From the NCBI GenBank assembly GCA_021647705.1, contig JAKIUF010000005.1:43936-107935 (forward strand): DNA of 64,000 bases, read 5' to 3'. This DNA is from Gammaproteobacteria bacterium (GTDB lineage Bacteria; Pseudomonadota; Gammaproteobacteria; SZUA-152). This document shows positions 8,811 through 27,753 of the stretch, in pieces; position 1 is the stretch's first letter, and the number at the start of each line of letters is the position of its first letter. Position numbers and translations under genes: made by a program. The notes beneath the pieces were generated by a model. That model did no database searches and was not told where the DNA came from. It saw only the letters and a list, made by a program, of their open reading frames with translations.

Positions 8811-10277
8811 ATGCACGATACACACACACCCTTGATTTTTGAACATTCCCGACCAGGCCGGATAAACAATACACATACCCAACGCAGCACCGCTCAAACG
8901 AGCATCATTCCTGACGCCATGCTGCGTAAAACACCGCCACGCCTACCGGAAGTGTCAGAAATGGATGCCGTACGTCACTATACCCGCCTGTCGCAAAAAA
9001 ACTTTTCCATCGACACCCATTTCTACCCGCTGGGTTCCTGCACGATGAAACACAACCCGCGCGCCTGTAATACGCTAGCCATGCTACCCGGCTTTCTCAG
9101 TCGCCACCCACTGTCTCCAGAGCAGCATGGCCAAGGCTATTTGAGCTGCATGTGGGATTTGCAGGAAATTCTCAAAGACGTGACCGGCATGACGGCCGTT
9201 TCCCTCACCCCCATGGCCGGGGCCCAAGGTGAGTTTGCTGGTGTCGCCATGATACGTGCCTATCACGATGCCAATAATGACACCACACGCAGTGAAATTC
9301 TGGTACCCGATGCAGCCCACGGCACTAATCCTGCCACGGCCACTATGTGTGGTTATGCCACTAAAGAAATCCCCACCGACGCCAATGGTGACGTGGATGT
9401 CGATGCACTTAAAGCCGTCGTAGGCCCGCAAACGGCAGGCATCATGCTCACCAACCCCTCTACGCTAGGTGTGTTTGATCGACGCATTAAAGAAATTGCC
9501 GGGATCGTACACAAAGCAGGAGGATTGCTCTATTACGACGGAGCCAATCTCAATGCCATACTCGGCAAGGTCAAACCCGGCGATATGGGTTTTGATGTGA
9601 TTCACATGAACTTGCACAAAACATTTTCTACCCCGCATGGCGGTGGTGGACCGGGAGCCGGGCCCGTGGGTGTCAGCGAACGCCTCAAACCCTTTATGCC
9701 AATTCCCGTTGTGGGAAAAAATGACAATGGTTATTACTGGCTGACAGAAAAAGATCTTCCACAAAGCATTGGCCGTCTTTCCGCCTTCATGGGCAATGCC
9801 GGAGTATTGTTACGCGCCTATATTTATGCCTTGCTGCTAGGGCGTGAAGGCATGACACGGGTTGCGGATTACGCCACACTCAATGCCAATTACCTAATGG
9901 CAAAACTCAGTCAGGCCGGTTTTGACATGGCTCTGCCTGAGCGACGTGCCACTCACGAATTTATTCTAACCCTGAAACGGCAGGCTAAAGAGCAAGGCGT
10001 TACCGCCATGGACTTTGCCAAACGATTGCTGGATTATGGCTTCCATGCACCCACCACTTATTTTCCATTGATCGTGCCGGAGTGTCTGCTCATTGAGCCA
10101 ACAGAATCGGAATCCAAAGAAACACTGGATGCCTTTGTGGAGGCCATGGCAGCAATACAAAAAGAAGCAGAATCTGATGCGCAAACGTTAAAAGGTGCCC
10201 CATATACCATGCCCATGCGCCGTTTGGATGATGTTAAAGCGGCACGCGAACTTGATTTGCGCTACAAACAGTCATGA
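8811..10277 (+). CDS. gcvPB: Glycine dehydrogenase (decarboxylating) subunit 2
   Basis: [18 protein letters not shown]-dependent motifs, 488 aa. Confidence 0.9.
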
Positions 10278-10636: not shown

Positions 10637-10720
10637 GATATTACGTTTTCGGATTATCAATATAGCTCTTTCTCCTTTCAAATAACCCGCGACATTTGAA
10701 ACCGCATATTTTGGCGGAAT

Positions 10721-10905
10721 CCTGATGCATATACCCGTAGCGATTGAGATTTAGGTCGTGTGCACGCCCTATTTGCTCCATGGCTGCGTTGTTGTCCTTG
10801 CAATAGAGTGACTATTACGCGTCATTTCGCCTTGCCATGAAACAAATATGACGCACACTTAAACCTAACTCCCAAACGCTACGGGTATATATGAATATGA
10901 TCAGG
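10721..10905. repeat. 185-bp MITE-like element with ~36-40 bp imperfect terminal inverted repeats
   Basis: Left end CCTGATGCATATACCCGTAGCGATTGAGATTTAGGT. Right end (reverse complement) CCTGATCATATTCATATATACCCGTAGCGTTTGGGAGTTAGGT. No ORF inside. Confidence 0.4.
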
Positions 10906-11288
10906 CATCAAGCAGTCTTCTTTAATAAGCACATCTTTTTCACCTGACTAATTTATGTAGCATCTCACCCGTGTTTTTCAATTGATTGATGGGGCTCCCT
11001 ATTTATTAAAAGTCCGAAATATCGTTTAAAAAAACCAAATCTTATAACCATAACGCTTACGGTAAATCCAGAATCGCACTAATCATTCTCTATACCACTG
11101 ATCAACCATGAAGTTTTTCAAATAAATACAAGATGGCCTGATTCTTGTATATCTGTTTATTATTATCTGTAAAAAAACATTACCCAATGAAACTTATAAG
11201 CCTTTATTTCGTATCACTTACAGCATTTCTTATTGCGGTTATTTTTCTGAAAATGATCATGTCAGCTATAACTATTAATTAGATACAA

Positions 11289-12650
11289 TTGATGTTAACC
11301 GAAGTAATTACTGCTGAATCAGACCTTGTCAATACATTATCACGCATACAATTCGGCATTACAGCCAGCTATCACATTATTTTCCCCAGCCTTTTGATTG
11401 GCTTGTCTACGCTACTCACTTATCTTTACGGCAAGTGGCTTCAAACAAACAATCATGTGTACCTTGTCAGCTATGAATTCTGGCTAAAATTAGTCGCTAT
11501 CGTATATCTACTCGCGGCTATCACAGGCGTCGCGCTTTCTTCACAAATAGATAATGTCTTTGGTGGTTTTTACCAGCAGTTGGAAAGCGCTTTATCTCCT
11601 ATACGGCAAATCGAATTGATTCTTGCTATCGTTTTAGAGGGCGGCTGCATAGGTGTAATGCTTTTTTATGCCCGCACTCAACGATCTTACGGCCGTTTTT
11701 CCGCAACTATTTTATTCAATATTGGAATCTTCTTAACGGCATTATTTGTTATCAGCAGAAATTCATGGATGAATACACCAGCAGGCATCGAGTGGATTGA
11801 CAATGAAATTCATGTACTAAATTATATCGATATTCTTTTTAACCCAAGCTTCCCATTGCGTTATCTGCATATGATTGTGGCGGGATTAATGGCTACCAGT
11901 TTTGTTGTTATGGGAATTGCGGCCTTTAGGTTACTTAAATATAACCATGATATCGTTGCCATTAAAAGCTTTAACATTGGATTCAAATCGGCATTAGTAT
12001 TTACGATATGCCAATTCATTATTGGTGACCTACACGGCCTTAACGTATACAAACATCAACCATTAAAAATAGCCAGTATGGAAGGGCACTGGGAGACCAA
12101 AAAAGGGAGTGATTTTATTCTTTGGGCAAACCCCAGTGAAGAAAATGAACTCAATCACCACGAAATAAAAATACCGTATGCATTAAGCATAATCCTTACT
12201 CACGAAATTAATGGCGAAGTACTAGGCATAAAGGAGATGCCAAAAAATGAACGGCCTAATATAAGCCTCGCGTTCTATACCTTTCGGATAATGCTTGCCT
12301 TGTCACTACTGATGTTAGCCATGGTGTTAATCGGTGTAATCAAATCAAAATCAAACCCGCTCCATCAGCAGAAATGGTTTTTAAGAATAGCATTATTTAT
12401 GTCACCTTCTGGCTTAATCGCAATTATTGCCGGATGGATTGTCGCCGAAGTTTCCCGACAGCCCTGGGTAGTTTACGGCATGATTAAAACCAGCCAAACA
12501 ATTAGCGCTCACTCAGCCGAGCAAATAATCACTTCGATGATCACCTTCTCACTCCTGTATCTGCTTTTATCGATTGCTGCAATAATATTTGTCGGCAAAG
12601 TTATTCTTAATGGAAACGTACAAACAAAATATAGGATAGGAAGCGATTAA
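11289..12650 (+). CDS. Cytochrome bd-type quinol oxidase subunit I-like protein (CydA family), apparently orphan (no cydB)
   Basis: N-terminal [23 protein letters not shown] matches the CydA signature. Nine or more TM segments. The gene is AT-rich (~36% GC) relative to its neighbours. No subunit-II gene follows. Confidence 0.7.
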
Positions 12651-14431
12651 TGTTTGGCGGCGATTACATCAGTTATATTGATGCCAAGTTTTATCATACG
12701 TGAACGTAAAGTATTGGGGTGCATGGACAATACTGCAGCGGCACCTCTTGTGCCAGAAATAATACCGCGAGTATGCATTAAAATGCGTTCAATGTGTGCG
12801 CGTTCTACTTCTGCCAGTGTCAGTAGCTGTTGAGAATCAGCCCCCGCTACTTCTAGCCTCTTTGGGATAAGACTTATCACATCGACACTGGACATTGTTG
12901 CCAATATTGCGGCACGCTCGATAACATTCCTCAGCTCGCGGATATTCCCTGGCCAGTCATATGCCTCTAACATTGCCAAACCATCACCGGAAAACCCGGT
13001 AAGCGTCTTACCAAATTTGCGTGCTGCACAACTGAGAAAATGTTTCGCCAACAATGCAACATCTTCGTGACGCTCACGTAATGCCGGGGCTTCTATCGGG
13101 AATACATTTAAACGATAATAGAGGTCTTTTCGGAAGCTGCCTTCTTCGACCAACTGAGCCAAGTCACGATTCGTTGCAGCGATAATCCTGACATTAACAC
13201 GGATCAGTTTTTCACCACCAAGGCGCTCGAACTCTTGCTCTTGCAGCACACGCAAGAGTTTTACTTGCGTATCTAACGGCAATTCACCAACCTCATCAAG
13301 AAACAAAGTGCCACCATCAGCAAGCTCAAAGCGCCCTCTGCGGCGATCATGCGCACCAGTAAAGGCTCCCTTTTCATGACCAAAAAGCTCACTCTCTACC
13401 AGGCTTGATGACAACGTCCCACAATTCACCTTTACCAGCGGGTGATCACGCCGCGGGCTATTTTCATGTACTGCATGGGCGATTAATTCTTTACCTGTCC
13501 CGCTTTCTCCTAATACCAGAACGCTCGCATCCGTCGGTGCGACATGTTCAATTTTTTCCAGCATTCGTCGAACAGGTAACGATGTACCGACAACCTCACC
13601 AAAAGCCAACTCTTCTCGAATTTCTTCCTGTAAGTAATTGTTTTGCTCTTCAAGCTGCTCTTTTAATTTTGCTACCTCATCAAATGCTTCAAGAAGATCT
13701 TTTTTAGCCTTTTTTTGCGCAGTGGTATCTTTAAAAACCGCAACAGCTCCCACTAATGTTCCATTCTCATAGATGGGAGTACTGGTGTATTCCACCGGAA
13801 AACAGGTACCATCTTTACGCCAAAATACCTCGCCTTCAATATGATGGATTACACCATCTTTTATTGCGGCATAAATTGGACATTCTTCCTGGGGGTAGGG
13901 CGTTCCATCTTCGTGACTATGATGATGAAGATAATGAATTGAGTGACCAATCATCTCTGCGGCACTCCAACCTGTCATGCGTTCTGCGGCTGGATTAACA
14001 AACGTTGCCTTACCTTCGAGATTAAGCCCGTAAATGCCTTCGCCAGCGGCGTTCAGAATCGACTCAGCATGGTGCTTAAGCACCTTTATGTCAGCTTCGG
14101 ATTTTTTATACTGGCTGATATTAGCCGCAATGACATCCACACCAACAACACTCCCACTCTTATCGTTCACGGGCGTCATCGTAAAAAGAAATAGGCGACT
14201 GGCAATACATTGTTCAAACGCCTGAACCTCGCCATTTAATGCTTTTTGACAGTTTTCAATTAATTCAGTGGAGATGCCAAGGCTGTGCAGCCGCTGCCCC
14301 AGTATTGATGCACCATCATAGGGAAACGGCCATTTTTGTCCTGCAAACTCGATAACACACATATCATGACCCACCCTCCAATAAAAACTTTGGGCGATCT
14401 CTTTTAGCTCATTGCTCATCACGATTTTCAC
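12647..14431 (-). CDS. Sigma-54-dependent transcriptional activator with tandem PAS sensor domains (NtrC/Fis family enhancer-binding protein)
   Basis: Central AAA+ sigma54-interaction domain ([21 protein letters not shown]-type motif region). C-terminal HTH. N-terminal PAS-like repeats. Confidence 0.85.
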
Positions 14432-14802
14432 TTTTACGTTACTGATGTTACGCAGAATTCAGCTATGGGTTCATTATTCGAGAGCGTGGCATCAGTTGCT
14501 TTAAAAAAGACACTTTACTGTCTATTCGTCACCCAATAGAGCATCAAGCCTAACGAAATATCGTGCAAAAGCCAAACAAAGACATAAACCTTCTTTTCTT
14601 GTCACTATATTTCGTACATTTACTATATATCGTAACACTCTGTACGCACCGTAATTCATATTGCATCCGCACGAAACATCTATCCTGTTGAATTAAAAAG
14701 AAATTCATTACAAATAAAAAGATGGCTCATTTTTTGCCTTATCACTGCGAAGGGCTGCACTTAAATAGTGTGCTACCCGCACTAAATCATCTGGAAAACT
14801 CA

Positions 14803-15849
14803 ATGACAAAAGATATGAGCCTTAACATTACCACCGCCCTATTATTGATAATAAGCACTCACACACTAGCAGGCTTCGAACCACTACCACTTATTGCTCC
14901 AGAGCCATCAGACAACCCAAGCTCTGTCGCCAAAATAAACTTAGGGAAACAACTTTTTTTTGACCCTCGCCTGTCACTTGACGGAACAATATCCTGCAAT
15001 ACTTGCCACGATGTTTCTGGTAACGGCACCGATAGCGCCGCAGTCTCAACGGGTATCGGTGGACAAAAAGGAGAGCGTTCTGCACCCACCATATGGAACG
15101 CCGCCTTCTTAAGCTCACAATTTTGGGATGGGCGCGCCGCTACGCTTGAGGAACAAGCAAAAGGTCCGATTCTCAACCCTATTGAAATGGGAATGCCACA
15201 TCAGGAGGCTGCTGTTGAGCGTATTGCGGCAATCCCTGGATACCGAAAACAATTCGCCGCGATCTTTGATGAAAAAAAACCCGTAACTTATGACAATATC
15301 GCCAAAGCAATCGCGGCCTATGAGCGCACACTCATCACACCCAACAGTCCGTTTGATCGTTTTTTAAGAGGGGATAAAACAGCGCTGTCTGCACAAGCAC
15401 AGAAAGGCATGAAGGAGTTCGAAGAAATTGGCTGTATTCTTTGCCATAAAGGGCCAGCTCTCGCAGGACCATCGACGCTGAAAAAAGGTGAAATTTATTT
15501 TCAATGGTTCCCGGCCATGCCCAGCGACTACGATGAAAAATACAAACTTAAAGAAGACCTTGGATACAATCAGGGAAATGATAAAGCCCCTACAGGTAAA
15601 TGGCGTGTACCCACTCTGCGTAACATCGCCCTCACAGCACCATACTTTCATAACGGCTCAGTAAAAACATTAAATGAAGCCGTGCGAGTAATGGCCCGCG
15701 CACAACGCAATCGCGTACTAACAGATCAACAAGCTGCAAACCTTGTCGCATTTCTTGAGAGTCTGACAGGTGAATTTGTTGTACAAAAAAGACCTGAACT
15801 TCCGCCAATGGGCGATGAGGATCAACAATCAACGCTTTCAAACTATTGA
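14803..15849 (+). CDS. Di-heme cytochrome c peroxidase (CcpA/MauG family)
   Basis: Signal peptide, then two CXXCH motifs (CNTCHD and CILCHKG) with CCP-typical spacing. The ATG at 14803 was chosen inside the longer tool ORF. Confidence 0.85.
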   Translation: MTKDMSLNITTALLLIISTHTLAGFEPLPLIAPEPSDNPSSVAKINLGKQLFFDPRLSLDGTISCNTCHDVSGNGTDSAAVSTGIGGQKGERSAPTIWNAAFLSSQFWDGRAATLEEQAKGPILNPIEMGMPHQEAAVERIAAIPGYRKQFAAIFDEKKPVTYDNIAKAIAAYERTLITPNSPFDRFLRGDKTALSAQAQKGMKEFEEIGCILCHKGPALAGPSTLKKGEIYFQWFPAMPSDYDEKYKLKEDLGYNQGNDKAPTGKWRVPTLRNIALTAPYFHNGSVKTLNEAVRVMARAQRNRVLTDQQAANLVAFLESLTGEFVVQKRPELPPMGDEDQQSTLSNY

Positions 15850-15966: not shown

Positions 15967-17169
15967 TCAAAACCCTAACATCACGCTTAGAACTAACCTT
16001 GAGTCAGATGCAAATGATTTTAATGCTGGATCATTATCGACATGGGAAAATTTATACAGGTTTGCTTCAACAAACCATTGATGCTTGATACGTGTTTTGG
16101 CTCGAAGATCCCAAAGAGTTGAATCATAATCCAGGTCACGGGTTAATCGCAGCTCATATTCGGTGCTGTTTAAGTCATTTACAGCAAGGCGAAGACCAAG
16201 AAAAATATCATTCTGAAAAGGCGTTATAGGCGAGCTACTATCAGATTTTCGTCCATCATAATAATACTCACCATACAATGTCAGCGCATTTTTGCTGGAA
16301 CCCATACGTGGAAATTCACGTTCCAGACCAATACCCAAACCGGTAAAATTATCATCACTCGTAGAGCGATAAGTTGACTCCAGCTTCACCAACAATTGCC
16401 CTTTGATCCATAACAGTTCAAGCCCGGCTTGTTCTATCCGGGCATAATTGGGTTGTAATGTGATGACATGAGCAATGCCATCCAGATTTGGTGTAAAATA
16501 AGGTGTCCGGGCATGGCCTTTGTAATAAGAGACAGCAAACTCCAGGGATGCCAGCATTTGTGAAATACGCACTGCGGAAGAAAGTGTATTTTGTCCCTTT
16601 TCAAACTCTGCATCAGAATATGCAAATGCTGAGTTCCTGAACCGGTCTTTCCTTTCAGCCAAACGCTCTTCCCGGCTATAAGGCAATAACCATACATCAG
16701 CCCTACCATTATCCAGTAACCAGGAAAGCCTCCCTCCTGGAATACCTTGCTTTATGTCCCCCTGGAAATCCTCAACGCGATCTCTCGGGTTCAGTATGTC
16801 CACCGGGCTGAATGCTTCCAGCACACCCCAGCGTTCCATTAACATACCGCCAGACATTTCAAGCTGTGAAGCGTAGTAACTCAATGCAAGTTCACGCACA
16901 TCACCCCGCCCGGATTTATTCGCCGCAGGATGATAACGGCCAAAAACAGACACATTGATGTCGGTATTACGATTTATCTGACCGTTATAATCCAAGGTTG
17001 TAGCAAGCGCATACTGACTTTGACGATCAGACTGTTCACTGAACAGCGGGGCTTCAGCATAATACTCATACCGGCCTTCCACCTCTCCTTTAAATGTTGC
17101 TCCATTGGCTATCGAATATAGTGCTAACATCGAAAAAACCAATAATACAGAAGCGTGGCCTTTCTTCAT
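15967..17169 (-). CDS. Outer-membrane beta-barrel protein (DUF1302-like), last gene of the PKS/MMPL operon
   Basis: Signal peptide. Alternating amphipathic beta-strand pattern rich in Y/G. C-terminal ...SVMLGF ending in Phe. Sits directly downstream of the LolA-like gene. Confidence 0.55.
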   Translation of the reverse strand: MKKGHASVLLVFSMLALYSIANGATFKGEVEGRYEYYAEAPLFSEQSDRQSQYALATTLDYNGQINRNTDINVSVFGRYHPAANKSGRGDVRELALSYYASQLEMSGGMLMERWGVLEAFSPVDILNPRDRVEDFQGDIKQGIPGGRLSWLLDNGRADVWLLPYSREERLAERKDRFRNSAFAYSDAEFEKGQNTLSSAVRISQMLASLEFAVSYYKGHARTPYFTPNLDGIAHVITLQPNYARIEQAGLELLWIKGQLLVKLESTYRSTSDDNFTGLGIGLEREFPRMGSSKNALTLYGEYYYDGRKSDSSSPITPFQNDIFLGLRLAVNDLNSTEYELRLTRDLDYDSTLWDLRAKTRIKHQWFVEANLYKFSHVDNDPALKSFASDSRLVLSVMLGF

Positions 17170-17171
17170 TA

Positions 17172-17951
17172 TTATTTGGACCATCTTCTCAGCGCGGTGG
17201 GATTAAGGTCGCTTTCCTTGAAGTCTGCACCAAACTCATAATCAGACCAAATAATCGTCGAGACAGCACCGGTCCTCAGGTTGCTCATCACCATTTTCAT
17301 CGGTCGCCAATACTTACCTGCAAATTTTTTATAGTCATAAAAATGCATTTCTTTTAACGGCCTTCCGTTACTATCATGATATAACAACCGCAAGGGATGA
17401 TAGATTTCCTGGTCCACCCACTCTTTTATCATTTTGTAACTGGAATAAGGATAAGCAGGTGTATTTTCAACGACAAATGTTGGTTTGCCATCCAGCAGCT
17501 CATCTTTGATGTATTTGTAGGTGTATTTTTTGACTTCCCAGGTGCCAATATCTTCAAATGACAATTCACTACCTGCAAAACTTCCACTTTTATCTCTGGC
17601 GGCAAGGCGTTTAGTACGACGAAGTGCGGGCATATAAATCCATTGGTCATCCGGCTCCAAACCATGTGAGTAAGTTAAAGAGACCATTCCGGCCAGGTCT
17701 CTGGGCTCCAGAAAATTGACCAGCCGTTTGTCGCCGTCATCAGGAACTTCAATTGTATACATTTTAAATTTTCGTTCACTGGTAAACCCTCCCGGCCCTT
17801 CCAGGGTCATTATTCCCGATACCGCATAGTTACCAAATCCGGAATCTCGACGCTGTGTTTCTTCTGCAATTTCCAAACCCCGGTCAATATCGGCAAAAAC
17901 CGAAAATGTTGCCAGCAGACTTGCTCCAAATAACAGTGCTCGTTTTTTCAT
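17172..17951 (-). CDS. Periplasmic LolA-like (DUF1329-type) lipid-binding protein
   Basis: Signal peptide MKKRALLFGASLLATFSVFA. Size and sequence pattern match the LolA-like proteins that accompany MMPL exporters. 1-nt overlap with the MMPL gene (ATGA). Confidence 0.5.
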   Translation of the reverse strand: MKKRALLFGASLLATFSVFADIDRGLEIAEETQRRDSGFGNYAVSGIMTLEGPGGFTSERKFKMYTIEVPDDGDKRLVNFLEPRDLAGMVSLTYSHGLEPDDQWIYMPALRRTKRLAARDKSGSFAGSELSFEDIGTWEVKKYTYKYIKDELLDGKPTFVVENTPAYPYSSYKMIKEWVDQEIYHPLRLLYHDSNGRPLKEMHFYDYKKFAGKYWRPMKMVMSNLRTGAVSTIIWSDYEFGADFKESDLNPTALRRWSK

Positions 17952-20239
17952 TATAATTTCCTTGTCTTATAAACAACGGATGGCAGAAACAGGAAGTCGA
18001 ATATCAGGGCCAGAAAAATAACAATCGCTGTCATCAATCCCATCCATGCGTTGATTTGAAATCCTGAAATCGCCAGGCAGGAAAAACCGGCGACCAACAC
18101 AATGGTTGTAATGAGAATCCCCGGCCCTGAATTTTTCATCGCATTCAGGATTGCCTGACTGTGATCAACATCCTTGCCTTTTCGTTCCCTGCGCAATGCT
18201 TCAATCAAGTGTATGGTGTCGTCCACGACAATACCCAGGGTAACGGCAACAATGGCAGCAACCGCCATACCGACTTCACCAACGATCAGCGCCCAGCCAC
18301 CCAATGCGGCAACCGGAGGAATAAAATTGGCCAGAGTGGCAAACACACCTAATACAAAAGATTTAAACAAGAAGAAAAGAAGGACAGAGACCGCTAGCAG
18401 CGCAAGCAGCGTTCCTTTTAGCATTTGGTCAATATTACGTTGGCCAATATAAGAAAAAAGAATACTTGTCCCTGTTGCTTTAGCCGTTTTATGCAATAGT
18501 GGAGTATGCTCTCCCATCCATTGCTCAGCGCGCTGAACAAGATCAAGCATTTCGGATGTTGAGGCATCATACAGTGATACTGTCAGCCTGCTTTCACTTT
18601 TATCCACGGTCACCTGATCCCTCAGTCCAAGCCCCATGGGCAGGGACATTTCGTATAACCATAAATATTGAGCAGCCACATATTTGTCGGTGGGCAAAAT
18701 ATAGTTTTCTTCATCACCACCATTCATGGCTCGATTGATCGTTTTCATGATGTCGGCCAAAGAGTGGACGTGAGACACTTCAGGCTGTTCTCTCAGCCAG
18801 TCTGAAAACTGGTTTAACTGATTTAAGTACTCAGGGTCTGTGATGCCATCCGGGTCGGTTGCCGGTGAGTAATCAATGGTATAAAAACCACCGATATGCT
18901 GATTCATATAATCTGTATCATTTCTGAAATCGAAGCGCTCATCAAAATACTGTACATAACGATCATCCAGTTTATTGGTCAGTGCCAGACTGGCTAGGCC
19001 AAGGCCCAATACAAGAGAGGTCACAATCACTTTGTTTGTGTGACGGGTCACCAGTCCATGCAAAAAAATCCACAGTGACTCTGGCACCAATGGACGTTGC
19101 TGAGAGACACGCCAGGGCAACATCAGAAGCAAAACCGGTAACAAAGTAAGGCTGAAGCCCCAGGCAAACAAGGTACCAAAACCGGCAATCATGCCCAGAT
19201 GGGCAAAGGGAGGTGATTCACTGAACATTAAGGAAAAGAAACCCACGGCGGTGGCCAGACTGGTCATGGTGATGGGACGAATCGTTTCTTTCAGACCCTG
19301 TTGTATTGCCCAGGATTTATCCTTATCAGGGTTTTCCCGGCGAAACCGGGAAACCGCCGAAACAAGGTGTATACAATCTGCGGTTGCAAGCGTCAGAATG
19401 ATAAAGGGTGCAGTGACACTGGGAGATGAGAGGGGTATACCCAACATTCCGGCAACCCCCATTCCACAAGCAATAGCCGCCAGCATAATGACCGTTATTG
19501 CCGAAACTACCCAGACTGACCTGAAGATTAACCAGAGCAGAAAAAGCATCAGCGTAATCATAATCGGGGTTAATAATGCCCCATCATTGGCACCGGCTTC
19601 ACCGAATGCATTGTCCAGCGCCAATGAGCCGGACAGCCGTAAATCAAGCTCATCCTGTGTTGATTCAAAATCGGTAATAATTTTCCTTGCCTGTTCCGTT
19701 AAATTAAATGCAGGGTCTCCCTGTAAAGTGTCATCCAGACGAAACTCCACAGCTACCAATCCTACCTTTGCATCACGGCTCAACAGTTGCCCAAGTAACA
19801 TGGGCTCCTGTATGGCGGCTTGTTTTAAAGCCTGTGCATCCAGGAGAGAAATCTCATCCCCTTTCCGATAAAGATGGTCGATGACAATATCGTCTCCCCG
19901 TGCAACAACACGTTGGAAGTTCGTCACTGAGTCCACACGTTTGGTGTGTGACATCGCCCAGGCTTTATCCGTTAATGTGGTTAACGCTTTTAGTTTTGAG
20001 GGGGTAAACAGGTCGCCCTCTCGGGCGGAAACAATAAATACCAGCGTATTTTCACGGCCATATTTTTTTTCAAAGCGCTCCAATTCCAGAAGTTCCGCGT
20101 TTTCATCTGAGAAAAACACTCGAGCATCACTTCTGAATTCCAACCCGGCAATGCCTGCCGAAATAATAGAGGTCAATAACAACGATATCGAAAAAACAAA
20201 CCAGGGGCGCGCCAGTATCCATTTGGCATAACAATCCAT
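17951..20239 (-). CDS. MMPL-family RND-superfamily lipid exporter
   Basis: 762 aa with two blocks of ~6 TM helices, each preceded by a large periplasmic loop. Typical MMPL topology. N-terminus MDCYAKWILARPWFVFSISLLL. Confidence 0.8.
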   Translation of the reverse strand: MDCYAKWILARPWFVFSISLLLTSIISAGIAGLEFRSDARVFFSDENAELLELERFEKKYGRENTLVFIVSAREGDLFTPSKLKALTTLTDKAWAMSHTKRVDSVTNFQRVVARGDDIVIDHLYRKGDEISLLDAQALKQAAIQEPMLLGQLLSRDAKVGLVAVEFRLDDTLQGDPAFNLTEQARKIITDFESTQDELDLRLSGSLALDNAFGEAGANDGALLTPIMITLMLFLLWLIFRSVWVVSAITVIMLAAIACGMGVAGMLGIPLSSPSVTAPFIILTLATADCIHLVSAVSRFRRENPDKDKSWAIQQGLKETIRPITMTSLATAVGFFSLMFSESPPFAHLGMIAGFGTLFAWGFSLTLLPVLLLMLPWRVSQQRPLVPESLWIFLHGLVTRHTNKVIVTSLVLGLGLASLALTNKLDDRYVQYFDERFDFRNDTDYMNQHIGGFYTIDYSPATDPDGITDPEYLNQLNQFSDWLREQPEVSHVHSLADIMKTINRAMNGGDEENYILPTDKYVAAQYLWLYEMSLPMGLGLRDQVTVDKSESRLTVSLYDASTSEMLDLVQRAEQWMGEHTPLLHKTAKATGTSILFSYIGQRNIDQMLKGTLLALLAVSVLLFFLFKSFVLGVFATLANFIPPVAALGGWALIVGEVGMAVAAIVAVTLGIVVDDTIHLIEALRRERKGKDVDHSQAILNAMKNSGPGILITTIVLVAGFSCLAISGFQINAWMGLMTAIVIFLALIFDFLFLPSVVYKTRKL

Positions 20240-20246
20240 ATTAATT

Positions 20247-21563
20247 TTACACTCCTGCGTAAGCTGTGGTATTCGCCAGTATTCGTTTTAAGGAATCCAG
20301 CGTATAAATAAAGTCTTCCTGTGTATGTTCTGAGGTAATAAAAAAACGAAGACGCGCTTCATTTTCAGGAACCACGGGATACATGACAGCATGGGCAATA
20401 ATGCCAACCTGTTGTAAATCTGACATCAGGTGAACAGCTAACATGCTATCTCCCAACATCACAGGCACTACGGCTGAGGCACCACTCCCTCCTGTATCAA
20501 ACCCCCGTTCTCTTGCCAGTTGGGAAAACTGTCTGACATTATTTTGCAGTCTTTCCACTCGCCATGATTCTTCCAGCATTATTTTTATTGCCCTGTTCGC
20601 GGCAGCGGCAGATGCAGGAGGGAGTCCGGTACTGTACAGAAGCACACCGGGTGCAAAGAAACGCAGCAGTCTTATCATTTCTTCAGAACCACCCAGAAAA
20701 CCACCGCAGCTGGCAAAACTCTTGCTCAGCGTCCCCATAATAATATCAACCTGACTGGCATTAATGTTCCAGTGTTCGCATAAACCCCGCCCGCTTTTTC
20801 CTACCACACCCAATGAGTGAGCCTCATCCACCATCAGCCAACAGTTGTGTTTCTTTTTAAGTTCAACAAGGCGGGGAAGATCTGCCAGATCACCATCCAT
20901 GCTGTAAGCGCCTTCAACAATGATAATTGCTTTTTCATAATTTCCCCGATTCTCATCCAGTAAAGTCGCCAGAGCATCGAAATCATTATGGGGGAAAACA
21001 ATCCGGCGGCTATCAGCCATAACAGCGCCCATAACACCACTGTTATGCATATATTCATCCATAATGATCAGGTCGCGTTTACCCATGAGGTAGCCAATAG
21101 TTGCCACGTTTGTCATATAACCACCCACAGTGGTTACACAACTTTCAAAACCAAACGCATCACACAGGGTGTGTTCCAGCTCCGCATGTATCGCCATCTC
21201 TCCCCCCACCATGCGTGCAGCACCTGCATGTGTCCCATATTGATCGAGAGAGTGTTTGGCGGCATTAATAACGCGCTCATCATTAGCCAGACCAAGATAG
21301 TTGTAACCCGAATAACAAATAAATTCTTTTTTTCTGCTGGTGACCTTGTTGGACAAATGACCGGAGCGCGGCATAAAGTAGGGATTATTCATCCCTTCCC
21401 GTCCATACACATCATCAATTTTTTCAATGATTTTATAATCTGCGGTCTTTGTAACATCCATGGCATGGATACGGGTGTTATCAATACCAGCATCTGTGTT
21501 GATCTTCTTTTTTCCCAAAAACTCGGACTTAAATGATTCTAATAAATCTGCATTCACACTCAT
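20247..21563 (-). CDS. Alpha-oxoamine synthase family PLP-dependent acyltransferase (8-amino-7-oxononanoate synthase / serine palmitoyltransferase-like)
   Basis: Class-II aminotransferase fold. PLP-lysine motif GTLSKSFASCGGFLGG. Start taken at MSVNADLL..., 20 bp downstream of the PKS stop. Confidence 0.85.
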   Translation of the reverse strand: MSVNADLLESFKSEFLGKKKINTDAGIDNTRIHAMDVTKTADYKIIEKIDDVYGREGMNNPYFMPRSGHLSNKVTSRKKEFICYSGYNYLGLANDERVINAAKHSLDQYGTHAGAARMVGGEMAIHAELEHTLCDAFGFESCVTTVGGYMTNVATIGYLMGKRDLIIMDEYMHNSGVMGAVMADSRRIVFPHNDFDALATLLDENRGNYEKAIIIVEGAYSMDGDLADLPRLVELKKKHNCWLMVDEAHSLGVVGKSGRGLCEHWNINASQVDIIMGTLSKSFASCGGFLGGSEEMIRLLRFFAPGVLLYSTGLPPASAAAANRAIKIMLEESWRVERLQNNVRQFSQLARERGFDTGGSGASAVVPVMLGDSMLAVHLMSDLQQVGIIAHAVMYPVVPENEARLRFFITSEHTQEDFIYTLDSLKRILANTTAYAGV

Positions 21564-21582
21564 CAAACATCTCCATATTTTG

Positions 21583-24500
21583 TTATGCCGCAATATCTTC
21601 CTGATTATCAATTTGTAATTGATCGCGGCATTTGTGCGCCAAAGCGGATATTGAACTACTGCCAATCAACTCCAGCGCTGAAACCGATACTCCCAGAGTT
21701 GCATCCAAACTCACACGGATCTCTGTTGCCATCAGGGAATCAACACCCAGTGATTCCAGAGGGCGGGACGGGTCAATCTGTTCTACCGGCATTTTTAATG
21801 CTGTGGCAAAAACCTCTGACACCAATGAAGTCAGCACTTGTGTTTGCACTTCCTGATCCAGCACCGCAAGTTTTGCTGACAAACGTGACTTGACAGAATC
21901 ATCATGTTCTTCCCTTGCGTCCTCAAGCACTGTGCGATAGCGCGATGAATGAACCGCATTTATCTCATACCCACTCCATTTTCCCCATTCGGGCTGAGAG
22001 GAAATACTGATATTGACCTGGCCCGTTGATATTGCACGCTCCATACCATTCAATCCCAGATTAAATGAGAGCGGTGAAAGCCCGATTTGAGTCAGGTGAT
22101 CACCGATCTTGCTATCCTGACTCAACATGCCCACAGAACCAATTGCACCCCAGTTGATACTCATGCCTGCTTGGTTATGCAACTGGCGATACCTTGCCAA
22201 GGCATCAAGAAAACCATTTGCCGCACAATAATTAGCCTGACGGCTATTACCCAGCAAAACAGAAATGGAGGAGTACAAAACAAAATGATCTAGTTTATGC
22301 ACCTGTGTGGTGACGTGAAGATTCCAGGCACCTAATGCTTTGGGAAGCATGACCTTGTGCATGTCCTCTTTTGTCATTTTTTCAATGGGTTTGTCTTCCA
22401 GCAAACCTGCGGTATGGAAAACCCCCTTAAAGGGCATCCCTATTCCTTCGATCATCTTGATCATATTCTGAACGGAAGCCGTCTTTGAAAGATCACAGGG
22501 TTGTGCCGTGGCATGCGACCCCATGGCGGCTAGCGTCTCCATAAATACTTGGTCATCACGACTCTCTCCGGCCCTTCTGCTACACAACACAATATGTCCA
22601 GCCCCGCGTCTGGCCAGCCATTTTGCCGTCTCTTTTCCCAGGCCGCCAAACCCTCCTGTGACAAGATAAACAGCATCGGGAAAAATATTAACGGTATCCA
22701 TTGCCTGTGCAGGCAACTCTGAATCATCATCAAAATTCAGCACTAAATTATCATCTGTCATTGATGGACCATGATGAACAAACTGTTTTAATTTCGTGCT
22801 TTGTCCTTTGAATTTTTCTGTATTGCCTGTCATCACCTCATGCAAGCATTGAACAACTTGTGCTTTGTTATTTTTCAGGTCACTGGCCAGACTGTAACGA
22901 ATCATCGAACCTATGTTGTACCGACACATAAAGGCACTTTCATTATTCGCAAGGTCAACAACAATACCGCCCTGTACCAGCATATTAAACCCAAAAAATT
23001 TGTCCCATTCCTCAACAGGTACGGCAAGTAGCGAAATGTTTTTATCACCAACAATATCGTCTATTGAAGTCTTGCCCCAATCGTGTTGGTTCGCCGACAC
23101 CGTGATAACGTCGATTTGTTTTTCCTTAAGCAGGGATGAGAGCGCCTGACCCAGCGCGTTCTCACATACCAGCGCGGTTGATCCCGCAGACAGTGAAACA
23201 GCATTCATGATCCGTCGGGCAGAAACCCTGCAAATTGCCTCGCTGGCAACAAAAGACGCTGATACAGCATTATCAATTTTCACCAACAACCCTGCATCCA
23301 GAGATATCAGAGCATGAGAAGAAAGTGCGAAAGGAATAATTCCCGCAACACGATCACCTACATTATAATCACTTACATTCATGCCAACACGAGTTATGCG
23401 AGCACACACTCCTGTCAATCCAAGTTCACTGGCATTGTCCTGAGAGCCGGTTATATTTTTGGGCAGATTAATCGTCTCAATTTTTAATTCAACCTCATCG
23501 GCAGCAACTTTAGGTGCCGCCATCTCGATTAATCCAAAAGCATTTCCATTCTCTGCTGGCATCAACTCAAACCTGTCATTCGACCCGGCAGACAGTGTCG
23601 TTTCATGAGCTTCCAAAAATATCCCTGACGGCAACAATTCCGAGAAATAACGCCCCGAACTTCGTAATGCAACTTCATCTTTATTACGATTAGAAAGAAG
23701 CTCTTTCAACAATGCCGTAATATTTTCATCATCAACCATTTTTGGCAGATCAATAATAGTGGTATTGAGATTTTTTATTTCATTGAACGCCACCCGACTC
23801 AACCCCACCAACGCCCCCTGGGCCGGAATAATGCTGGTATCAAAAGTATCAATAATAAAGGCACTTCGCGTCACGATATAAAGCCGGGGAGTGGATGGGG
23901 CTTTTGCCAGTATTTGTATTAATTCGAGCAGGTGTGTACTGGCCTGTATCCCGACAGGGTCCAGAGCATTGTCATAACCTGAATCAGCCATATATAAAAC
24001 GGCATCAAATTTTGTTGTGTCTATGCTTCCCGATACCACTTCATCCATAGAGGCGACGGTACAGTCGGTGGTGGTCTGCTGTGTAATATTAGTGCATATC
24101 GTGCCGAAAATTGAGACATCACCCTCTTCAATAGCCAACCATTTTTTGTTGGCTATCGTAAAATCATCAAGCTCTTCAGCTTTCCACTCAAATCGGAGAT
24201 CACCCTCGGGATATTCTTTATGCTTATCTTTGTTCAGCAATGCCGAACAGACCAAGCCATTGATACTGGCAACTATATTGCCATCCTCATCACACACCCA
24301 TAAATCACATTCGATTTTTCGTGCAGTGCGTTTCTTCATGCGACCATGACAATAAACTCGCGCAGGAAGTACACCGTAAATTTTCATTTCATTAATCGCT
24401 GTTGGCAAAAATGTCCCTTTTTCAGGATCCAGCAAACATAATACGGTTTGCAGGCAACCATCCAGCAGACTTGGATGAACTTGATAGTGATGACTATCCT

Positions 24501-27500
24501 GAGCAAGGTCATCCGGTAAAACTAATTGGCTGATAACCTCACTGCCATTATCTTTCAAATAACAGCAGACTATTGGTTGAAACAGCGGCTTGTATTGCAT
24601 AGAAAATTTTGCAAAGTTCTGATAAACCTCATTAGCCTGTAGTGGTTTCTCAAGCCTTGTTAACAGATCTTGAATATCGACTCTGGAATTTCCAGCTGAG
24701 CGCAACGGATAAATAAACGCACTTGCATGCCGACTGACCTGATCAGGATTTTGTTCATCAAAACTTTTTACGGTAAATGTATCTCCCGCTTCATTCACGG
24801 TTACTTCCATATTGAGTGCTTTGTCTGAGTCAAGCACCAGCGCTTTCTCAATAGAAATATCCGTCAGTCGCCACCCCTTGCCCAAATCCATCGACGTGCC
24901 CTGAGCACATTCAATCATGGCTTCGATATACCCTGCGGCAGGCATAATGGAAAGCCCATCAACAACATGGTCTTGCAGATAATTCAACCGATAATCGGCG
25001 AGATCGCTACGCCACACATTGGCTGCGGGGATTTTCATTCCCAATAATGGGTGTTCAATATCGTCCAGGCGATCACGTCGCTGGGCCTCGGATTCACGCC
25101 ACAAAACTTCACGTTGCCAGGGATAAACAGGCAGCTTTATAAAGCGGCCCTCCGGGTGACGAAGCTGCCATTGCAGCTCGGCTCCTTCTGCATAGGCGGT
25201 AGCGATGGACTGATAAAAAGATTCAAGCTCCCGTTGTTTTCTGTTTAAAGTTTGACACAAATTTACTTCTGTTCCGGCATCAGTACAAATTTCCTTAATG
25301 GCATTACGCAATACAGGATGAGGGCCCACTTCGATAAACACACGGTAATCGTCATCAATCAATGTGCGTATTGCTTTTTCAAAATAAACGGGGTTGCGCA
25401 CATTTTCACACCAATAAGCAGCGTCATAACGTATGTCTGTTATGCATTCTCCAGTGACGGTTGAATAAAGCGGTATAGTGGGCTCAACAGGTGTCAGTGA
25501 TGACAGCTTCTCCATTAGTTCCGGCTTAAGTGGCTCCATCATGGGGCTGTGATAAGGCACTTCAACAGCCAATGCCCGGGCAAACACATCACGCGCTTCT
25601 AGTTGCGCTCGCAATTCATCCAGACAGTCGGAATCACCCGCCAGCGTCACCCCGGTGGGGCTGTTGATTGCGGCAATACTGACCTTTCCCTGGTAAGTCG
25701 TGATCGCTTCCAATGCCGCTTCGTGTGTTAAACCAACCGCCAGCATACCGCCCTGGTGTGCTGCTTTTTTCTGAATCTGGCTACGATAAAAAGCCACATG
25801 TAACGCATCTCGTAGGCTTAACATACCAGCAGCCCAGGCAGAACTTATCTCCCCCACCGAATGACCCACTACTGCCGCAGGCTCCAGGCCTTCCGATCGC
25901 ATTGTCTCGGTCAGCGCATATTGAATAACAAAATTTGCCGGTTGTGCGTATTGGGTTTCTGTAATGCGGGAATCTTTTTCAGACTTCATCATTTCCGCTT
26001 TAATGGAAAAATCGGCAATCTCTTGAAAGATTTTGTCAGCGTGCTCTACGGCTTCTCTGAACACAGCATTGCCTTGATAAAGCCCCTGACCCATCCCCCA
26101 CCATTGCGGCCCCATTCCCGTATAAATAAAAACAGGTTTTACCTGGCCAGTAAAAGGTTTACTGCCTTCCGCTGCCTGCGGTGAATATCCCTTCTCAACA
26201 TATTCACCCAATACACTAAGCATTTCCTTGTCATTTTTACCCCACAGTGCGAGACGATACTCCAGGTGTCCCCGTCGCCGTGAGGCTGAATAAATAACAT
26301 CATCCAGCTTGCTGCCAGAATGCAACAACTGTAAATAATCTTTCGCTAAGGTTTTTACGGCTTCCTGACTACGTGCAGAAATGGGTAACAATTTGCAAGA
26401 CTGTTTGCCAACCGTTCTTTTACACTCTCCCATTACCTCATTGTTTATTTCTGGAGGCAGGCTCAATATGGCATGCGCATTGGTACCACCATAACCAAAA
26501 GAGTTAATGGCAATACGTCGGGTTTCACCTTCCGCTGCCAACGAACTCAATTCTGTCGCCAGCATCAAGCCATTTTCACCAAAAGGAATATTGGGATTGG
26601 GTTCTTTAAATGTCGCCAGAGGCGGTACTTTGTTATGTTTTAACATCATGCAGACTTTGATGATGCTGGCAACACCGGCCGCCGCTTCCAGGTGTCCTAT
26701 ATTACTTTTCAAGGAGCCTATCTTGCATAAATCGGTACGCTGTTGACCGTAAACTGAAGCAATAGCTGATGCCTCTATGGGATCGCCCACCGGGGTGCCG
26801 GTTCCATGCGCTTCTACATATTGAATACTTTGCGCAGCCAGCGAGGCACGGGCAACCACCTTTTCCATCAAAACCTGTTGAGACTTCGCGCGGGGAACGG
26901 TAATGCCACTGGTACGGCCATCCTGATTAACACCCACAGCATCAACAATCGCCAGAATAGGATCACTGTCCGCCAATGCCTGCTGAAGTGATTTCAGAAT
27001 GACAACGCCAGCTCCTTCACCACGGCCATAACCATCTGCCCGTGAATCAAAACTTTTTGACAAGCCATCACGCGCCAGGAATTGCCCCTTTGACATGGCA
27101 ATCGGGTATTCCGGGCGCAACATAAAGTTTACCCCTCCGACAATAGCCATTTCACACACACCACTGCCAATGTCATTCACTGCATATGAAAACGCGACCA
27201 GTGAAGATGAACAGGCTGTATCAACAGAAATACTGGGACCGCGCAGATCATAAGCATATGAGAGACGATTGGAGAGCATGGTCAGTGTTGCACCGGAAGC
27301 ACTGTGTGTACCGATTTCACTTCGCGCACTACTGCCCAGTTGATTGAGCATATGATCCAGGGTAAATCCACCCACATAAACACCGACATCCCGCCCTGCC
27401 AATGTCGTCGGATCTATTCCCGCATCTTCCAGTGCTTCCCATGACACTTCCAGCAACAGGCGTTGCTGGGGGTCATAAAACTCTACTTCCCGAGGTGCAA

Positions 27501-27753
27501 AATTAAAAAACCCTGCATCAAATTCTTTATAATTCCAGTCAACAAAATGCCCTTTACGCACATATGATTTTCCGGATGCCGTGCCTTCCGTATTATAAAA
27601 CCGTTTCGCTTCCCAGCGATTTTGAGGAATATCACTTATTGCATTTTTACAATCGGCAATATTTTCCCAGAATGCGTCTGCTGTATTCGCACTTCCGGGG
27701 AAACGGCACCCCAGCCCGACAATCGCGATCTTTGATTCCTTATCAATATTCAT
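21583..27753 (-). CDS. Type I polyketide synthase, single fully reducing module (KS-AT-DH-ER-KR-ACP), 2056 aa
   Basis: KS active-site Cys DTACSSSLVA. AT serine GHSVGE. DH HPLLGMKIP...DGLSIMPAAGYIEA. MDR-type ER segment (...GDRVAGIIPF...). KR Rossmann VYLVTGGFGGLG with YxxxN (YCAAN). ACP LGVDSLMATE. Confidence 0.9.
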   Translation of the reverse strand: MNIDKESKIAIVGLGCRFPGSANTADAFWENIADCKNAISDIPQNRWEAKRFYNTEGTASGKSYVRKGHFVDWNYKEFDAGFFNFAPREVEFYDPQQRLLLEVSWEALEDAGIDPTTLAGRDVGVYVGGFTLDHMLNQLGSSARSEIGTHSASGATLTMLSNRLSYAYDLRGPSISVDTACSSSLVAFSYAVNDIGSGVCEMAIVGGVNFMLRPEYPIAMSKGQFLARDGLSKSFDSRADGYGRGEGAGVVILKSLQQALADSDPILAIVDAVGVNQDGRTSGITVPRAKSQQVLMEKVVARASLAAQSIQYVEAHGTGTPVGDPIEASAIASVYGQQRTDLCKIGSLKSNIGHLEAAAGVASIIKVCMMLKHNKVPPLATFKEPNPNIPFGENGLMLATELSSLAAEGETRRIAINSFGYGGTNAHAILSLPPEINNEVMGECKRTVGKQSCKLLPISARSQEAVKTLAKDYLQLLHSGSKLDDVIYSASRRRGHLEYRLALWGKNDKEMLSVLGEYVEKGYSPQAAEGSKPFTGQVKPVFIYTGMGPQWWGMGQGLYQGNAVFREAVEHADKIFQEIADFSIKAEMMKSEKDSRITETQYAQPANFVIQYALTETMRSEGLEPAAVVGHSVGEISSAWAAGMLSLRDALHVAFYRSQIQKKAAHQGGMLAVGLTHEAALEAITTYQGKVSIAAINSPTGVTLAGDSDCLDELRAQLEARDVFARALAVEVPYHSPMMEPLKPELMEKLSSLTPVEPTIPLYSTVTGECITDIRYDAAYWCENVRNPVYFEKAIRTLIDDDYRVFIEVGPHPVLRNAIKEICTDAGTEVNLCQTLNRKQRELESFYQSIATAYAEGAELQWQLRHPEGRFIKLPVYPWQREVLWRESEAQRRDRLDDIEHPLLGMKIPAANVWRSDLADYRLNYLQDHVVDGLSIMPAAGYIEAMIECAQGTSMDLGKGWRLTDISIEKALVLDSDKALNMEVTVNEAGDTFTVKSFDEQNPDQVSRHASAFIYPLRSAGNSRVDIQDLLTRLEKPLQANEVYQNFAKFSMQYKPLFQPIVCCYLKDNGSEVISQLVLPDDLAQDSHHYQVHPSLLDGCLQTVLCLLDPEKGTFLPTAINEMKIYGVLPARVYCHGRMKKRTARKIECDLWVCDEDGNIVASINGLVCSALLNKDKHKEYPEGDLRFEWKAEELDDFTIANKKWLAIEEGDVSIFGTICTNITQQTTTDCTVASMDEVVSGSIDTTKFDAVLYMADSGYDNALDPVGIQASTHLLELIQILAKAPSTPRLYIVTRSAFIIDTFDTSIIPAQGALVGLSRVAFNEIKNLNTTIIDLPKMVDDENITALLKELLSNRNKDEVALRSSGRYFSELLPSGIFLEAHETTLSAGSNDRFELMPAENGNAFGLIEMAAPKVAADEVELKIETINLPKNITGSQDNASELGLTGVCARITRVGMNVSDYNVGDRVAGIIPFALSSHALISLDAGLLVKIDNAVSASFVASEAICRVSARRIMNAVSLSAGSTALVCENALGQALSSLLKEKQIDVITVSANQHDWGKTSIDDIVGDKNISLLAVPVEEWDKFFGFNMLVQGGIVVDLANNESAFMCRYNIGSMIRYSLASDLKNNKAQVVQCLHEVMTGNTEKFKGQSTKLKQFVHHGPSMTDDNLVLNFDDDSELPAQAMDTVNIFPDAVYLVTGGFGGLGKETAKWLARRGAGHIVLCSRRAGESRDDQVFMETLAAMGSHATAQPCDLSKTASVQNMIKMIEGIGMPFKGVFHTAGLLEDKPIEKMTKEDMHKVMLPKALGAWNLHVTTQVHKLDHFVLYSSISVLLGNSRQANYCAANGFLDALARYRQLHNQAGMSINWGAIGSVGMLSQDSKIGDHLTQIGLSPLSFNLGLNGMERAISTGQVNISISSQPEWGKWSGYEINAVHSSRYRTVLEDAREEHDDSVKSRLSAKLAVLDQEVQTQVLTSLVSEVFATALKMPVEQIDPSRPLESLGVDSLMATEIRVSLDATLGVSVSALELIGSSSISALAHKCRDQLQIDNQEDIAA

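Follow-up and report, generated by a model that had tools for sequence, protein, structure and literature searches.

We analysed a 64-kb stretch of a metagenome-assembled genome (MAG) of a gammaproteobacterium (contig JAKIUF010000005.1; hereafter the window), in which cydA, the gene for cytochrome bd subunit I, stands beside the genes for a PAS-domain sigma-54 activator and a di-haem cytochrome c peroxidase (CCP). The encoded CydA is intact and belongs to an orphan subfamily that has no cydB beside it, has a sequence signature of its own and is preceded by a previously unannotated gene for a 31-residue membrane protein. We regard it as probable, though by no means certain, that the locus forms a sigma-54 regulon complete in itself, which scavenges O2/H2O2 and centres on a bd enzyme without CydB. 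To our knowledge, each characterised bacterial cytochrome bd has been described as needing at least CydA and CydB. The locus may thus encode a bd-type oxidase with a construction unlike any described so far.

The orphan CydA and its small upstream protein

The 453-residue product of cydA (11289-12650) matched Cyt_bd_oxida_I (PF01654) with 398.7 bits over profile positions 1-416 of 418. The Q-loop and the haem ligands had been singled out for inspection in the first-pass annotation of this DNA. When the protein was aligned to 6rko_A, H19, E99, E107, H186, K252, E257, R391, M393, E445 and R448 (E. coli numbering) were all kept, including every ligand of the three haem sites, and the Q-loop was short, with the quinol-site residues K252 and E257 present as K260 and E265. 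Functional positions were invariant or nearly so among 120 relatives, and the haem ligands H29, H194, M335 and E387 and the channel glutamates E109 and E117 (window numbering) were invariant. Seven residues separate the two channel glutamates and, under the spacing rule of Murali et al. (bioRxiv 10.1101/2021.01.16.426971), the window CydA was therefore grouped with the qOR1 type. An AlphaFold (AF2) model built on 28 relatives (predicted local distance difference test 80.7; predicted template modelling score 0.85) was compared with solved structures using Foldseek. The template modelling score was 0.85-0.87 against the CydA chains 5doq_A, 7nkz_A and 7ose_A, and only about 0.5 against solved CydB chains, in keeping with the nine-helix fold of CydA. 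Because the functional residues are kept and the fold superposes on solved CydA, the window CydA is neither a pseudogene nor a degenerate paralogue.

The lack of a cydB partner, noted in the first-pass annotation, was borne out. We used two tblastn probes, CioB of a control locus and E. coli CydB; no cydB was detected in the window, and the positive control locus scored. Related loci, collected by exact-protein look-ups and by scans of genome and metagenome collections, were read with flanks of up to 10 kb. No cydB was found beside about 45 orphan-type loci with 38-100% CydA identity (the control, locus L039, was positive with both probes), and the same held for about 40 loci at 50-100% identity. 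The closed genome of the isolate Sulfuriflexus mobilis aks1 (AP018725.1) carries a cydA locus with the same layout and no cydB nearby. Distant orphans, at 38-43% identity, were found in Hahella ganghwensis and at loci L040/L041, L045, L046 and L048; two similarly distant relatives, Stutzerimonas cioA and P0056, have cioB or cydB downstream. There was one CydA tblastn match per locus and per window, and no second CydA paralogue. In a rough neighbour-joining tree, drawn with no support values, the verified orphans fell into two groups outside the verified canonical group.

The orphans are also set apart by their sequence. D88, Y95, R106 and R157 (window numbering) occurred in 100% of orphans, while canonical CydAs have G, S, L and A at these positions; N90, G103, F114, F115, F120, F126 and W153, which are invariant in canonical CydAs, were lost. 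The orphan-specific changes cluster in residues 69-157, which correspond to transmembrane helices 2-4 (TM2-TM4). In solved enzymes, TM2 and TM3 flank a proton pathway that follows the contact surface of CydA and CydB, and O2 enters through a channel in CydB in all enzymes but that of Geobacillus (PMC8951039). To judge from the alignment, the helices that normally face CydB are remodelled in the orphan subfamily. A clade-profile search of 1.84 billion 50%-identity representatives returned 9,542 CydA-like proteins at E up to 0.001. The D-Y-R-R signature was present in only 5 of the approximately 105 full-length proteins among the best 150 of these 9,542, and none had a partial signature. By this search, the orphan subfamily is small and discrete. 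Judged from the loci compared, the lack of an adjacent cydB is a family-wide trait that goes with a distinct sequence signature.

Directly upstream of cydA we found a small open reading frame (sORF) of 31 codons, the product of which is MKLISLYFVSLTAFLIAVIFLKMIMSAITIN; it ends 9 nt ahead of the cydA ATG. An open reading frame (ORF) of exactly 31 codons precedes cydA in every relative of 50-100% CydA identity with enough upstream DNA, and a hidden Markov model (HMM) of the product gave one match per locus in 40 loci (E 1e-10 to 1e-16). Single-nucleotide codon differences among 24 distinct DNA versions were 1879 synonymous to 1034 nonsynonymous in frame, compared with 727:2697 and 212:3060 in the other two frames; by this measure the sORF is under purifying selection. 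M1, Y7, S10, F14, L21 and K22 are invariant in the small protein. Neither the 31-residue protein nor its longer versions matched a Pfam or NCBIfam family at E up to 10, including the CydX/YbgT, CydS and CydZ/DUF2474 families. The sORF is absent from the NCBI annotation of this MAG and of S. mobilis, and was called by two metagenome gene callers. We consider the small protein a candidate dedicated subunit or assembly partner of the CydB-less CydA.

Upstream of cydA, the distant orphans have a longer ORF (55-89 residues) that ends in a helix of similar pattern, (L/G)Y-x2-S-(L/V)-x2-F followed by a basic residue. The upstream ORFs of L045 and L046 were the two best non-family HMM matches among 14,366 translated segments, with weak E values of 0.057 and 0.23; those of L040, L010 and L048 resemble the small protein by eye only.

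Two other roles were considered for the sORF. A mere regulatory leader peptide is unlikely, because conservation is at the amino acid level, with residues that are invariant and an excess of synonymous differences. A read-through fusion with cydA was rejected: the two are in frame in the window and out of frame in several relatives. The region of about 650 bp ahead of cydA, described in the first-pass annotation as a leader, is not all leader, as it holds the sORF (11187-11282), a repeat element (10729-10890) and a palindrome resembling an activator site. No riboswitch or other known RNA was detected in it (no Rfam match at E up to 1).

Five loci that have no sigma-54 activator (L004, which is S. 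mobilis, at about 9767-9784, and L006, L019, L023 and L037) carry a different, perfect palindrome, TGTAGT-N6-ACTACA, approximately 100-108 nt upstream of the sORF; L034 has a partial match. GTAGT-N6-ACTAC had only six matches in the 641 kb of sequence compared. On its sequence and position, this palindrome has the appearance of an operator, at which a regulator other than the activator would act on the sORF-cydA pair.

Unusual neighbourhoods were observed at distant orphan cydA loci. At L040/L041 (6001-9092), an An_peroxidase gene lies directly downstream of cydA, beside a NiFe hydrogenase. L048 (5707-7974) and L045 (4281-7811) are further loci with stress-related or unusual neighbours. Genes for TspO/MBR together with glutathione S-transferase, for flavodoxin and for hemerythrin occur among the neighbours of distant orphans, and one distant orphan cydA is located near a type VI secretion cluster with a Tle1-like lipase.

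The activator, its predicted promoters and the peroxidase

The first-pass annotation had suggested that cydA, the activator and the peroxidase may form a module. The three genes occurred together in every locus with at least 69% CydA identity, and these activator-linked loci showed two gene orders and unrelated genomic neighbours. The activator matched Sigma54_activat (PF00158) with 245.8 bits, AAA_lid, HTH_8 and PAS, and has a Walker A motif, GESGTGK, at residue 308 and GAFTGA at residue 355. Two PAS domains had been proposed. One, at residues 123-240, exceeded the Pfam cut-offs; in the N-terminal 110 residues, PAS_4 scored below threshold (18.6 bits, cut-off 23.1; E 0.0023). The orthologues share 71-77% identity overall; this N-terminal PAS-like domain varies among them, and the second PAS (residues 119-245; window 13690-14075) is almost identical. 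This nearly invariant PAS contains a His-rich motif followed by a Cys, which could indicate a site for metal, haem or redox sensing. Of the solved PAS domains, the closest were short LOV-like and FixL-type ones, and the LOV cysteine is absent. All NCBIfam equivalog scores of the activator were far below their cut-offs; the protein therefore lies outside every named activator family.

A -24/-12-type element ahead of cydA had been reported at 11128-11142. The sequence TGGCCTGATTCTTGT exists, but its position is 11134-11148, six bases rightward. Its GG and spacing are canonical, and its -12 is TTGT rather than TTGC. A TGG-N8-TTG element was present 53-61 nt before the sORF ATG in 6/6 distinct activator-linked loci and in 0/12 loci without the activator, with a background rate of 4.5e-4 per position. 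The six loci represent three independent lineages, between which the DNA around the element is only 43-56% identical. The ccp element, TGGCTC-N5-TTGC, has its GG and GC doublets exactly ten bases apart, as in the consensus TGGCAC-N5-TTGC, was among the top-scoring sites of a window-wide scan, and is conserved before the orthologous ccp in five relatives as TGGCGCG(T/A)TTTTTGT. The 15-mer ahead of cydA in the window recurs, letter for letter, as the ccp element of a 79% relative. Because consensus-like matches are common by chance, it is conservation that carries the case for sigma-54 promoters here. The sequence TGGCATCAGTTGC at 14487 was rejected as a sigma-54 site, its spacing being two bases short. 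Sigma-70-like sites showed no excess in this region over shuffled sequence.

Each of the two predicted promoters has ACGA-N4-TCGT palindromes at a distance of 100-170 nt on its upstream side: CCGAAATATCGT is located 120 nt upstream of the sORF-cydA -24, and ACGAAATATCGT 170 nt upstream of the ccp -24. Allowing one mismatch, ACGAWWWWTCGT had six matches in the 64-kb window, where 1.9 were expected, and four of the six fell within the two promoter regions; ACGAAATATCGT was the sole exact match. Among 47 loci, exact copies of ACGAWWWWTCGT were found in activator-linked loci only. Relatives have two palindromes about 21 nt apart upstream of cydA, and the position orthologous to ACGAAATATCGT reads ACGAAATA(C/T)CGT in five of them. 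We infer that these palindromes are candidate binding sites of the activator.

The identification of the third gene product as a di-haem cytochrome c peroxidase was upheld, and its best solved relatives mark it as a classical bacterial cytochrome c peroxidase (BCCP). The best match was Shewanella CcpA (3o5c_A; 271.6 bits, E 9e-80, residues 20-339), followed by proteins of Geobacter, Pseudomonas, Paracoccus and Nitrosomonas. The FWDGRA, PTLRN and PYFH(N/D)GS blocks align between the window protein and 3o5c_A, and CXXCH motifs are present at residues 65 and 211. We rejected a protein-modifying enzyme of the MauG/MbnH type, to which the best NCBIfam names pointed: solved MauG scored about 123 bits and MbnH (6e1c) 143 bits, approximately half of the BCCP score, and the protein fell below the NCBIfam cut-offs (216 against 363 for MbnH; 167 against 444 for MauG).

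Relatives of 70-72% identity (L002 1-855, L003 8657-9670, L013 1026-2015 and L017 3085-4074) have another CCP paralogue directly upstream of sORF-cydA, which shares 58-60% identity with the CCP of the window and is followed by its own terminator hairpin. This paralogue has neither the sigma-54 element nor the palindromes, and the two peroxidases are therefore probably regulated differently.

Gene coordinates and genomic setting

The three ORFs given in the first-pass annotation, cydA (11289-12650, +), the activator gene (12647-14431, -) and ccp (14722-15849, +), were all found, and Pfam agreed with their named identities (PF01654; Sigma54_activat with PAS and HTH_8; CCP_MauG). Comparison with orthologues indicated that the likely true starts are ATG 11292, ATG 14419 and ATG 14803, respectively (Table 1). 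The cydA ORF can also be read from TTG 11289; the ATG at 14722 consists of an A and the TGG of the ccp -24 element, and from ATG 14803 the ccp product opens with a signal peptide. The cydA and activator genes converge on a palindromic TTAA (12647-12650), in which their stop codons overlap. Since this leaves no space for a terminator between the genes, their transcripts must overlap. In the relative L002, the two genes overlap by 29 nt.

Table 1. Positions in the window of the genes, predicted promoter elements and candidate activator sites of the locus
Feature	Position	Strand	Basis
cydA, cytochrome bd subunit I, orphan subfamily, short Q-loop, qOR1-type glutamate spacing	11292..12650	+	PF01654, alignment, AF2 model
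Sigma-54 enhancer-binding protein gene	12647..14419	-	Pfam domains; start by orthologue comparison
ccp, periplasmic di-haem cytochrome c peroxidase with signal peptide	14803..15849	+	Homology to solved BCCPs
Unannotated 31-codon gene for a single-helix membrane protein	11187..11282	+	Conservation, synonymous excess
-24/-12-type element TGGCCTGATTCTTGT for the sORF-cydA transcript	11134..11148	+	Conserved in activator-linked loci
-24/-12 element TGGCTCATTTTTTGC, canonical GG-N10-GC, for ccp	14723..14737	+	Window scan, conserved in relatives
Candidate activator site (upstream activating sequence, UAS) CCGAAATATCGT, sORF-cydA promoter	11014..11025	+	1 mismatch to ACGAWWWWTCGT
Degenerate second UAS copy, ~20 nt downstream of the first	11034-11045	+	Palindrome match
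Perfect palindrome ACGAAATATCGT, candidate activator site, ccp promoter	14553..14564	+	Exact ACGAWWWWTCGT match
Two degenerate palindromes, 18 nt apart: ACTATATTTCGT (14604-14615) and ACTATATATCGT (14622-14633)	14604..14633	+	Similar copies in orthologous regions

The cydA gene and its leader had been described as far more AT-rich than the surrounding genes. This was so for raw GC, which was 0.39 in cydA and 0.37 in the upstream intergenic region compared with 0.52 for gcvPB and dgkA; along the sequence it was 0.31-0.39 over 10.8-12.0 kb and 0.49-0.55 in the upstream gcvPB and dgkA. It was not so for GC content at third codon positions (GC3), which was the same as in the neighbours: 0.40 in cydA, 0.40 in the activator gene, 0.39 in ccp and 0.39 in the next gene (15967-17184). 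Further along, GC3 was 0.42 in a LolA-like gene, 0.42 in an aminotransferase gene, 0.425 in the gene for a 2,056-residue polyketide synthase and 0.48 in a resistance-nodulation-division (RND) transporter gene (17951-20239), compared with 0.52-0.56 in gcvPB, dgkA and the yejM-like gene and a median of 0.51 for the 28 long ORFs in the window. The low-GC3 block thus extends over approximately 10.6-27.8 kb, the RND gene excepted, and is wider than the three redox genes. The extra AT-richness of cydA sits in codon positions 1 and 2, as expected because it encodes a membrane protein. We therefore rejected AT-richness as a sign of a separate origin of cydA, its GC3 being equal to that of its neighbours.

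The low-GC3 block is bordered by two copies, equally oriented, of an element of about 135-165 bp (10729-10890 and 28400-28532) that resembles a miniature inverted-repeat transposable element; its terminal inverted repeats are 28 nt long and, in copy 1, 89% complementary. The window holds no further copy, and 0.01 matches to the inverted-repeat arm pattern were expected by chance. No tRNA was found near the block borders, and there was no integrase among the identified window ORFs. Horizontal acquisition of the block is plausible, if unproven, on these sequence features.

The genes beside the redox genes (15967-27753, -) mostly share the low GC3. They encode a 405-residue protein with a signal peptide, no Pfam match and a terminal Phe, which is possibly an outer-membrane barrel, a LolA-like protein, an RND transporter of the HAE3/MMPL type, a class I/II aminotransferase and the 2,056-residue polyketide synthase, with KS-AT-DH-KR-ACP domains. 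This set may be a lipid synthesis and export cluster.

Interpretation and comparison with known systems

In the reading that we favour, the PAS enhancer-binding protein would bind the ACGA-N4-TCGT palindromes and, in response to a signal that is probably O2, peroxide or redox state, would switch on the two -24/-12 promoters. One promoter would yield a two-gene transcript encoding the 31-residue membrane protein and then CydA, and the other would yield the periplasmic di-haem cytochrome c peroxidase. Most likely, a bd-type quinol oxidase without CydB would result, made of CydA and the small protein and consuming O2, and perhaps H2O2, at the membrane. The peroxidase would clear periplasmic H2O2, and both would shield a sulfur-oxidising gammaproteobacterium that lives under microaerobic or anaerobic conditions. 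A response to oxidative stress or microaerobic conditions, as proposed in the first-pass annotation, is consistent with the gene products. We hold more tentatively, as possible rather than probable, that CydA and the 31-residue protein, possibly with CydA as a homodimer through the CydB surface, constitute a complete quinol:O2 (or quinol:H2O2) oxidoreductase in which D88, Y95, R106 and R157 replace the functions of CydB.

Several points weigh against a sigma-54 regulon around a CydB-less enzyme. Look-alikes of -24/-12 elements are frequent by chance, with 96 candidates in 64 kb; the -12 of the cydA element is TTGT or TTGA in most relatives, not TTGC; and no rpoN gene was found within the 64-kb window. 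Most relatives of 50-64% identity carry the sORF-cydA pair without activator or peroxidase, and the link to the peroxidase is therefore lineage-specific. Further, CydB is regarded as required. In every solved enzyme but that of Geobacillus, it is CydB that contributes the O2 channel and a portion of the proton path (PMC8951039). The absence of cydB is established for the 64 kb of this genome and for flanks of up to 10 kb in the relatives, and a CydB encoded elsewhere in the genome would fit these results.

In the main rival, the orphan CydA would be an ordinary subunit I, an alternative and separately regulated catalytic subunit that takes its CydB from elsewhere in the genome, such as a canonical cydAB or cioAB operon. 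CydB is present in every solved bd oxidase (PMC8951039), and Murali et al. pair the CydA of qOR1-3 with CydB (bioRxiv 10.1101/2021.01.16.426971). An ordinary subunit I would, however, hardly be expected to have no cydB near any of about 45 loci across 38-100% identity, to have lost the invariants of CydB partners while gaining four invariant polar or charged residues in the CydB-facing TM2-TM4, and to own a dedicated small partner gene and its own promoter. We consider this explanation unlikely, although it is the strongest of the alternatives. Less likely again is a two-part quinol peroxidase, in which CydA and the small protein would be a quinol dehydrogenase feeding the co-regulated peroxidase and O2 would not be the main substrate. 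Orphan cydA adjoins a peroxidase gene in three separate lineages (BCCP wherever CydA identity is 69% or more, a di-haem CCP of 452 residues in L044 and the unrelated An_peroxidase in L040/L041), cydA and ccp share their types of promoter and palindrome, and a cytochrome c donor gene is absent from the module. Yet the ligands of haems b595 and d are invariant, as are the two channel glutamates, all of them needless for a simple electron wire; a peroxidase is missing from the neighbourhood in most 50-64% relatives; and An_peroxidase, lacking a signal peptide, is probably cytoplasmic.

The regulatory part of the favoured reading could also fail. If the -24/-12-like sequences and palindromes were non-functional, the genes would be read from sigma-70 promoters and the activator would regulate something else. 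The chance frequency of look-alikes and the missing -12 C of the cydA element speak for this, but the elements keep a fixed position in three lineages with near-random flanking identity and separate activator-linked loci from the others without exception, the same 15-mer serves ccp in one relative, the palindromes occur only in activator-linked loci and sigma-70-like sites are not in excess. We regard this alternative as improbable. That cydA is a decaying remnant of cydAB (a pseudogene copy, together with a canonical cydAB operon elsewhere, had been named in the first-pass annotation as a finding that would undo its proposal), or that the missing cydB is an assembly artefact, deserves hardly any weight, even though the window comes from a MAG. 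Both are ruled out in practice by the intact ORF with every functional residue kept and by the recurrence of the layout across the family, in dozens of independent assemblies and a closed isolate genome; further, there is no room for a lost gene between cydA and the activator gene, because their stop codons overlap.

Cytochrome bd is a drug target. The orphan lineage makes a minimal bd oxidase, and the actual contribution of CydB, directly testable, and one of its carriers, S. mobilis aks1, is cultured and has a closed genome. The locus also adds a new small-protein family that had been missed by gene callers and NCBI annotation, and it offers a clean example of genes for respiration and peroxide defence under predicted sigma-54 control, together with predicted operators.

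The regulatory and peroxidase components resemble known systems in part. Activators of the NorR/norVW type share with the window activator an AAA+ domain with GAFTGA, HTH_8, a divergent -24/-12 target and multiple upstream palindromes; in contrast to the NorR type, the window sensor is of the PAS type, not GAF. The BCCPs Shewanella CcpA, Pseudomonas CCP and Geobacter CcpA/MacA show full-length homology to the window CCP, with two CXXCH motifs and a signal peptide. BCCPs are usually under FNR or OxyR-type control, whereas the window gene has a predicted sigma-54 promoter, a dedicated PAS activator and predicted co-regulation with a bd subunit.

Among known systems, the short-Q-loop bd oxidases CioAB (qOR1) come close to the orphan enzyme: their subunit I is 38-40% identical to the window CydA, with the same fold, haem ligands and quinol-site residues, and likewise has seven residues between the channel glutamates. 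The Stutzerimonas cioA control is followed by cioB and a 36-residue downstream ORF, whereas the window CydA has no adjacent cioB or cydB. Orphan CydA differs further in the gain of D88, Y95, R106 and R157 and the loss of canonical-invariant residues in TM2-TM4.

The small subunits CydX/AppX, CydS and CydH (CydY) are hydrophobic single-helix proteins of approximately 30-40 residues encoded in oxidase operons (PMC4325964; PMC8951039), and CydY and CydZ were predicted by Allen et al. 2014 (PMC4325964). The new 31-residue protein is like them in size and in its hydrophobic single helix. However, genes for CydX-type subunits follow cydB, whereas the gene for the new protein precedes cydA and occurs only where CydA is CydB-less; the protein has no family match and a distinct set of invariant residues, Y7, S10, F14, L21 and K22. 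The surveys of Murali et al., Allen et al. (PMC4325964) and Degli Esposti et al. do not mention a CydB-less qOR1 lineage or such an upstream partner, and the Sulfuriflexus genome paper does not list terminal oxidases. Within the library searched, full-text searches brought up nothing relevant on orphan CydA, on a small protein encoded upstream or on a bd-CCP-sigma-54 operon.

Reduction of O2 without a CydB homologue has a precedent in the archaeal CydAA' (qOR4a/qOR4b; bioRxiv 10.1101/2021.01.16.426971). In CydAA', a diverged CydA paralogue encoded next to cydA replaces CydB, whereas the window has a single CydA-like gene, which is bacterial and qOR1-like, with a 31-residue neighbour. If the orphan CydA and its small neighbour do form a complete enzyme, they would represent a third solution to the problem of 'subunit II', after CydB and the archaeal CydA'.

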